From Escherichia coli (lineage in GTDB: Bacteria > Pseudomonadota > Gammaproteobacteria > Enterobacterales > Enterobacteriaceae): a DNA stretch of 64,000 nt. Numbering within the stretch: position 1 is the stretch's first letter; each line of letters starts with the position of its first letter. Made by a program: the position numbers and the translations under genes. A model generated the notes under the pieces. It worked only from the letters and a program-made list of their open reading frames with translations. It was not told the DNA's origin and did no database searches. The stretch is taken from assembly GCF_003334255.1 (NCBI RefSeq), contig NZ_QOWU01000019.1; one strand, 5' to 3'. This document shows positions 63,654 through 64,000 of the stretch, in pieces.

Positions 63654-64000
63654 CGCGCTTCGCTTGTCGGCTGCTTCGCCGGGGCATAAAAAATTTATGC
63701 CCCGACTCTCCAGCTCTGTCAACGCAATACACCTTTCGCTTCTCAACTCATCAATAACATTTAACATTATGTTTTGCTGTGGTTTTTCTCTTTTTCGCGT
63801 CATGCCTGCGGTGTGATGTTTCCGCATTTAATCCCGACCCCGTAAAACTCAACCAGACGCATTCTGGCGGCCTGTTTTTCTGACTCTGTTTCGGTGTGGT
63901 TTTTTCAGAACCGGCTTCACTGCGTGCGTATCACGCGCAATACGACCCCAAATAAAGCAACCTGCCTTCCACCCCTCAATTCGGGCGCCCTTCCCTCGTC

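Follow-up and report, generated by a model that had tools for sequence, protein, structure and literature searches.

In the 64,000-nt stretch of Escherichia coli DNA analysed here (the window), the right-hand ~24 kb are a prophage of the P2 family. Its left junction, at about 39838, adjoins tamA, tamB and ytfP, of which tamA and tamB were confirmed as host flank genes, and the prophage is integrated between ytfP and, past the end of the window, chpS. Positions 39500-64000 are at least 80% present at 98-99.8% identity in 14 of 5,426 complete genomes. The closest deposited phages are P88-like (Xuanwuvirus, Gemsvirus and Citrobacter phage Shae_phiSM), but their portal genes are only 72-75% identical to that of the window. 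The prophage of JNEC-KY204 also lies between ytfP and chpS, and those of G1/2 and SW070917 adjoin dmsA (compared at window 39500-39838 and the right ends of L009 and L010). Such near-identical structural halves (99.8%) at different chromosomal sites, with different integrases, indicate that the immunity and integration half past the window is mosaic relative to the half in view.

The visible part ends with the portal gene Q (62610-63653, plus strand, 347 aa; phrog_68 portal protein, E 3.6e-142), which closes the P-Q operon. It is preceded by the large terminase gene (60826-62604), and its counterpart in E. coli relatives is annotated as 'phage portal protein'. The gene order to its left is D on the minus strand, FI, FII, E, T and U on the plus strand, and G, H, I, J, W, V, S and R on the minus strand, the same order as in P88, with the tail block FI-FII-E-T-U (window 40586-48241) inverted relative to P2. 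D (40586-41731, minus) abuts FI (41873-43078, plus) divergently across a gene-free gap of 141 bp, and U (47004-47477, plus) abuts G (47513-48241, minus) convergently across a gene-free gap of 35 bp. Nowhere in the window are G and FI adjacent and codirectional with a slot between them, the arrangement that defines the Z/fun site of P2; with the FI-U block inverted, as it is in P88, the P2 G-FI junction is absent here. The canonical cargo site between G and FI, which the initial annotation took to be empty, thus does not exist in this lineage. At its own G/U junction, P88 carries an invertase and a second tail-fibre set.

Cargo is in view elsewhere. Between the lysis cassette and tail gene R, where P88 has merely a short gap, the late operon carries a gene for a 656-aa DUF6645 protein (53769-55739, minus strand; phrog_143, function unknown), which has no PADLOC or NCBIfam match, and just to its left a DUF1378 ORF at about 53540-53705. 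With these two genes, and with the slot between hairpin and cos described below, possible sites for cargo are not confined to the sequence past 64000, where defence cargo had been expected. A recent preprint adds minor hotspots inside the late genes to those known in P2 (bioRxiv 2026, 10.64898/2026.02.27.708500). A 46-aa ORF resembling a Hok/Gef-type membrane toxin, MPQKTIIVSILCLTMLLTIWMIHRSPCEFRLNIMWSEFAAFLQCKQ (39967-40107, minus strand), is placed between the left end of the prophage and an ogr-like gene (40242-40544, minus strand); in P88 a hok/gef-family gene is annotated after D (record positions 34928-35068).

Twenty-seven nucleotides past the stop codon of Q begins a hairpin, CGGGGCATAAA-AAA-TTTATGCCCCG (63680-63704, no strand assigned), with an 11-bp stem and a 3-nt loop. 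At its core is GGGGCATAAAAAATTTATGCCCC, which occurs once in the window, at 63681-63703, and forms a perfect 10-bp inverted repeat with a 3-nt spacer; the flanking C/G pair at 63680 and 63704 extends it to 11 bp. The 23-bp palindrome reported earlier at about 63682-63704 is therefore real, although it lies one base to the left of that position and its AAA centre makes it not strictly self-complementary. Hairpins of this quality (stem of 10 bp or more, loop no longer than 8 nt) are rare. The 64-kb window holds six distinct ones, far above chance, since 30 dinucleotide shuffles gave 0.37 on average. This one folds alone at -16.1 kcal/mol, and within a 77-nt context the fold z-score is -3.3 for the plus strand and -5.2 for the minus strand.

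What might such a hairpin do? As expected of an intrinsic terminator, it is a stable, GC-containing stem-loop directly after the last gene of an operon, and its position is that of the annotated putative tQ terminator of P2, between Q and cosL. However, tQ has a canonical GC stem followed by T6, whereas the hairpin of the window has an A/T-rich stem top and no T-run: no U-tract lies 3' of the stem on either strand (ACTCTCC follows on the plus strand and GCGAAGC on the minus strand), and a terminator scan did not call it. For these two reasons it is not a canonical intrinsic terminator. A promoter scan of 63300-64000 returned no promoter, and Rfam, searched at E<=1 from Q to where the early operon ends, yielded no known RNA family, its sole match being a spurious miRNA. 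We infer that the hairpin is the end signal of the P-Q transcript, acting as a terminator or a 3' stabiliser.

The hairpin sits inside a conserved module of about 68 nt (63651-63719, plus strand) that runs with sharp edges from the stop codon of Q to CCAGCTC and reads TGACGCGCTTCGCTTGTC(G/T)GCTGCTTCGCC, then the hairpin, then GACTC(T/A)CCAGCTC; blastn places the boundaries of the block at 63650-63719. Across lineages whose flanks have diverged the module is 97-100% identical, while the P88-like portals beside it are about 73% identical. Compared with P88 and Chuche, identity is 58% in 63600-63649 (the end of Q), 98% in 63650-63699 and then 38% or 34% in 63750-63799. The exact palindrome recurs in at least 120 IMG/VR contigs, where it always starts 27 nt after the stop of a frame of 350-366 codons, with at least five different portal C-termini to its left and at least five unrelated flanks to its right.

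This degree of near-invariance exceeds what a terminator usually needs and suggests that the module does something more; the most plausible further function is that of a recombination anchor bordering a variable region. Could it instead be a site that acts at the level of DNA, such as a dyad bound by a protein or a packaging-termination site like lambda cosQ, and not a transcript end at all? The perfect dyad symmetry with no U-tract, the sharp edges of the module in at least 120 contigs, and its 97-100% identity beside portal codons of only ~58-73% would all fit such a site. However, the distance from hairpin to cos ranges from ~185 to ~880 nt among relatives (with groups at 299-302, 323 and 874-883 nt), which is hard to square with packaging of fixed geometry and makes a packaging role for the module unlikely; the hairpins that P2, 186 and phiT5282H carry in this position look like terminators and are unrelated to it, and P4, which shares cos with P2, has nothing comparable on that side. 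We therefore consider a DNA-level site distinctly improbable.

A functionless module that persists because P2-like prophages repeatedly cross over by homology at the left edge of the variable region is a possibility we take more seriously, while still doubting it. Unrelated sequence directly to the right of the module and different Q C-termini to its left are what such crossovers would leave behind, S1-CAM-02-A is a clear recombinant at the neighbouring cos junction, and intense local recombination at hotspots has been reported (10.64898/2026.02.27.708500). Yet recombination alone would not hold 68 nt nearly invariant while the portals diverged by 27%, and a stable hairpin exactly at the end of an operon suggests function. 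We continue to prefer a module that ends the late transcript and may in addition anchor recombination.

To the right of the module lies a lineage-specific spacer (63729-63830), delimited by homology breakpoints against three loci (L012, L013 and L014), which forms a small variable slot between the hairpin module and a block to the left of cos. In the window the spacer holds no credible gene. Two ORFs that overlap it were considered and rejected: one of 58 aa (63640-63816, plus strand), which crosses homology breakpoints, and one of 201 aa (63222-63827, minus strand), which crosses them and also overlaps Q. In S1-CAM-02-A the slot is 34 bp long; in SCU-106 and 2013C-3033 it has grown to 662 bp and carries a minus-strand ORF of 167 aa (phrog_5091, function unknown; 7720-8223 in L012 and L013). 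Two IMG/VR loci (L059 and L060) also carry the phrog_5091 ORF between hairpin and cos, and P88-type phages with a similarly enlarged slot (L039, L053 and L082) have unrelated sequence there. Judging from these comparisons, cos has a second, minor variable slot on its Q side. The cos-left block that follows (63831-63984, no strand) is common to prophages with this type of cos, with identities of 94% in SCU-106 and 90% in 2013C-3033 from 63831 and of 82.5% in S1-CAM-02-A from 63853, and has no homology to the P88-type phages.

The last 40 nt of the window are 67.5% GC (the top 4.8% of 40-nt windows) and 77.5% pyrimidine (the top 0.15%), which bears out the GC-rich end noted in the initial annotation. 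This end is most likely the start of a 19-nt cohesive-end sequence at about 63985-64003, give or take 2 nt, of which the first 16 nt, GCGCCCTTCCCTCGTCgcc, would lie at 63985-64000; in the orientation of P2 it would read 5'-GGCGACGAGGGAAGGGCGC. The sequence across the window end was taken from SW070917 (window coordinate = L002 + 42999) and runs GGGCGCCCTTCCCTCGTC up to position 64000 and GCCTGCGCGC from there on. As for cos in the P2 family generally, the location is right: Q ends at 63653, and in relatives cos is followed by a moron, an SSB gene and the early operon up to gene A.

Resemblance to the cohesive end of P2 does not carry the assignment. The candidate 19-mer GCGCCCTTCCCTCGTCGCC is identical to the reverse complement of P2 cos at 13 of 19 positions (in the P2 orientation, GGCGACGAGGGAAGGGCGC against GGCGAGGCGGGGAAAGCAC), a level expected by chance, since about 20 sites of that quality occur in 41 kb and about 10 in shuffles; a search of the extended locus for the P2 19-mer with up to 3 mismatches found no match. 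The cos call rests instead on the architecture of a set of RTGCA boxes, whose positions we count from the end of the 19-mer. The physical ends of P2, P4, 186 and PsP3 are known. The boxes stand at +25, +97 and +107 in all four of these phages, with a further box at +119 in P2, +120 in P4 and 186, and +116 in PsP3. In the cos type of the window (read in relatives), as in P88, Chuche and phiT5282H, they stand at +27, +99, +109 and +119, and in 500465-2 at +28, +100, +110 and +120, against a background of 1.8 RTGCA per kb per strand; the +109 box of the window's type reads GTGCG. All four boxes fall past the window, at the equivalent of about 64030-64126 (L002 21030-21126). The first adjoins a T-run, and this pairing of a T-run with RTGCA at +25 or +27 recurs in P2, P4, 186, PsP3, the P88 type and the type of the window; the spacing of the boxes is nearly fixed across the same set although the intervening sequences are unrelated.

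A conserved block on the right-end side, another feature of cos in the P2 family, is likewise found in the relatives past the end of the window. It is carried by 859 E. coli genomes, in which the alignment to divergent Peduoviridae starts at 63991 and stops at about 64128 (window-equivalent). P2 and P4 share about 28 bp to the right of the 19-mer, including TTTTAATGCA; they have been reported to share only a 55-bp cos (PMC9594776), and in our own comparison the shared stretch reaches beyond the 19-mer by 8 bp towards Q and by 28 bp in the other direction. In P2, the RTGCA boxes overlap the promoter region of old.

Might the GC-rich end be a mere bias of composition, with the real cohesive end farther on, for example in the TGCGCGC or T-run segment? 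The chance-level identity to P2 cos would allow this. However, anchoring on the 19-mer puts all four boxes no more than 2 nt away from where P2, P4, 186 and PsP3 have them, and the P88-type 19-mer in the same alignment columns, GGTGACGGGGGAACAGCCC, has CGGGGGAAC in common with the sticky ends reported for the Salmonella phages SEN4 and SEN5 (PMC5261728), so that we regard a cohesive end elsewhere as highly improbable. Viral-contig ends, used as a proxy for physical ends, did not cluster at the predicted cos. The exact nick positions are inferred, and because boxes one to three stand 2 nt away from their places in P2, the cut sites carry an uncertainty of 2 nt. The packaging site had been described as not visible; about 16 of the 19 cohesive-end bases would in fact be in view, and it is the four boxes that lie past 64000.

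The RTGCA boxes probably bind the small terminase subunit (gpM homologue, gene at 57908-58717), for which they are a likely recognition array. A bolder proposal, that the 68-nt module is a dedicated functional element of P88-like Peduoviridae, for example a fixed recombination anchor, and that, separately, the boxes are the long-sought array by which the small terminase recognises DNA, we consider unlikely enough to be speculative; the module and the shared array are worth a note rather than a claim.

The sequence past 64000 was read in eight close E. coli relatives. In seven of the eight, the sole content of the slot after cos is an interval with one membrane-protein ORF; the exception, S1-CAM-02-A, has an extra cassette ahead of that ORF. 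The ORF is annotated, on the plus strand, in six of them (SW070917, G1/2, JNEC-KY204, SCU-172, SW071611 and S1-CAM-02-A), and DETEC-S792 has an interval of equal length with no gene annotated. PGAP gives the ORF 235 or 178 aa, and the likeliest start gives 181 aa, with three predicted hydrophobic (membrane) helices and a C-terminal domain of ~75 aa. The protein matches phrog_1416, a family without known function, and has no match in Pfam, NCBIfam or PADLOC. After it, on the minus strand, come an SSB gene, a 'MarR family' gene, two small ORFs and the replication endonuclease gene A. The MarR-family gene (112 aa, L002 22145-22483, minus strand) matches PHROG 142, 'Ren-like exclusion protein', at E 1e-28, and may be a moron rather than a regulator. 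Farther on, the relatives carry an orphan Dam methylase, a ParE-like ORF, an exonuclease, cox- and C-like regulators and the integrase.

What lies between gpQ/cos and gpA varies from relative to relative, as in the known hotspot of P2-like phages, and three different contents were seen. In 2013C-3033, which belongs to a more distant group (~80% identity), a regulator and a DUF6516 gene replace the membrane ORF and the SSB gene, and homology to the type of the window stops directly behind box 4, at the point of the change in cargo. In S1-CAM-02-A, which matches the visible part at 99.3% identity, an additional cassette of three genes (WP_000717775, WP_000781372 and a 263-aa ORF) stands ahead of the membrane ORF. 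Its cos region is recombinant (L014 7880-8030 and 10843-10970): a window-type 19-mer with TGCGCGC is followed by a P88-type box block, the cassette and a partial window-type box block, an arrangement in which the cargo appears to have been swapped along with half a cos site.

The cos-adjacent A-Q interval of P2-like phages is well established as a hotspot for defence genes (Rousset et al. 2022, PMC9122126), and Table S5A of that study lists exactly the arrangement seen here (WP_021577197 + WP_001537149 + WP_000801013 + WP_016232588 + WP_133301447) as well as the three-gene cassette of S1-CAM-02-A. The arrangement after cos in this lineage is therefore already known and catalogued in the A-Q hotspot. 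In the relatives' version of the unseen half PADLOC found only the orphan Dam methylase and nothing in the hotspot, with no family for the membrane ORF, the SSB gene, the small ORFs or the three-gene cassette and only weak winged-helix matches for the regulators.

Could the genome of the window nevertheless carry a real defence system directly past 64000? The standing of the A-Q interval as a defence hotspot (PMC9122126), the extra cassette of S1-CAM-02-A and the regulator and DUF6516 pair of 2013C-3033 show that such a place can be occupied. However, seven of the eight close relatives, including both that share the integration site of the window, have the membrane ORF interval only, and none of these proteins, those of the cassette included, has a PADLOC match, which makes a defence system there very unlikely. 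The initial annotation held that any defence cargo would lie in the region past position 64000: the region between cos and gene A is indeed a recognised hotspot of variable cargo, but 'any' was too strong, and what the relatives hold there is in seven of eight cases a membrane-protein ORF with no recognised link to defence in PADLOC.

We conclude, with a probability of about 0.8, that positions 63654-64000 are the non-coding interval between portal gene and cos of an integrated P2-family (Peduoviridae) prophage of E. coli with P88-like gene order. That the window ends after the portal gene, at the Q-cos junction of such a prophage, with the replication and immunity half out of sight, had been recognised at the outset. 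These positions are ordinary and hold nothing new in kind. They would comprise four parts. In the first, the 68-nt module, the 11-bp hairpin would end the late P-Q transcript, as a terminator or a stabiliser of the 3' end, and the module would also be a conserved recombination anchor; the second would be the lineage-specific spacer of ~100 bp, a minor cargo slot in relatives; the third, a type-specific cos-left block of ~150 bp; and the fourth, the first 16 nt of the 19-nt cohesive-end sequence that terminase would nick. Past the window would come the T-run with a GTGCA box and then three RTGCA boxes in helical phase, probable sites of the small terminase, followed by the A-Q hotspot, normally with one ORF for a three-helix membrane protein read away from cos, like old of P2, and then by the end of the early operon, with the SSB gene, the Ren-like/MarR gene, two small ORFs and gene A.

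The closest parallel is the left end of P2 itself (NC_001895), where the same elements follow in the same order: portal gene, a hairpin some tens of bases past its stop codon, a non-coding spacer and a 19-mer that is C-rich on the strand analysed, and beyond these a T-run with an RTGCA box, three phased RTGCA boxes and a moron read away from cos, which is old in P2 and the membrane ORF in the relatives of the window. The differences lie in the distance from the stop codon of Q to the 19-mer (331 nt here, ~167 in P2), in the 19-mer, which differs at 6 of 19 positions, in the 2-nt shift of the first three boxes, and in the cargo, which is unrelated to old and tin of P2. In the P88-like phages (Xuanwuvirus P88, P884B11, Shae_phiSM; Gemsvirus 500465-2) the portal gene is followed by an identical 68-nt hairpin module, and the D / FI-U / G-H synteny is that of the window. 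By contrast, their spacer and cos-left block are unrelated, their 19-mer is of another type (GGGCTGTTCCCCCGTCACC), and the hotspot of P88 holds parM/parP-like partition genes and other ORFs.

The region beyond cos resembles the A-Q hotspot of Rousset et al. in its position next to cos, between gpQ and gpA, and in its variability among relatives, but the lineage of the window normally has no recognised defence gene there and has an extra, smaller slot on the Q side of cos. The cos of lambda (cosQ-cosN-cosB) is similar in that a nicking site stands beside phased repeats, presumably bound by the small terminase; it differs in that, in the window's cos type, the nick site separates the boxes from the portal and large-terminase genes. 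The two share no related sequence, and the hairpin as an equivalent of cosQ is unsupported.

The discovery value of the locus is small, in that the unseen sequence, as read in close relatives, is a catalogued and uncharacterised arrangement of a well-known hotspot. The analysis does fix the probable position of cos for a Peduoviridae lineage with no studied representative, and makes clear that the gene map of P2, its G-FI site included, is not transferable to P88-like phages. Two conserved islands, the hairpin module and the block of cos boxes, bracket variable slots. If both act as anchors, they would let diverged phages swap cargo on either side of cos, which would address how cargo is exchanged at P2 hotspots, where recombination is intense and local and its mechanism is described as unknown (10.64898/2026.02.27.708500). 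If the RTGCA array is what terminase recognises, satellites would have to copy the boxes. The analysis also suggests that the P4-like satellites which a given helper is able to package could be predicted from box architecture.
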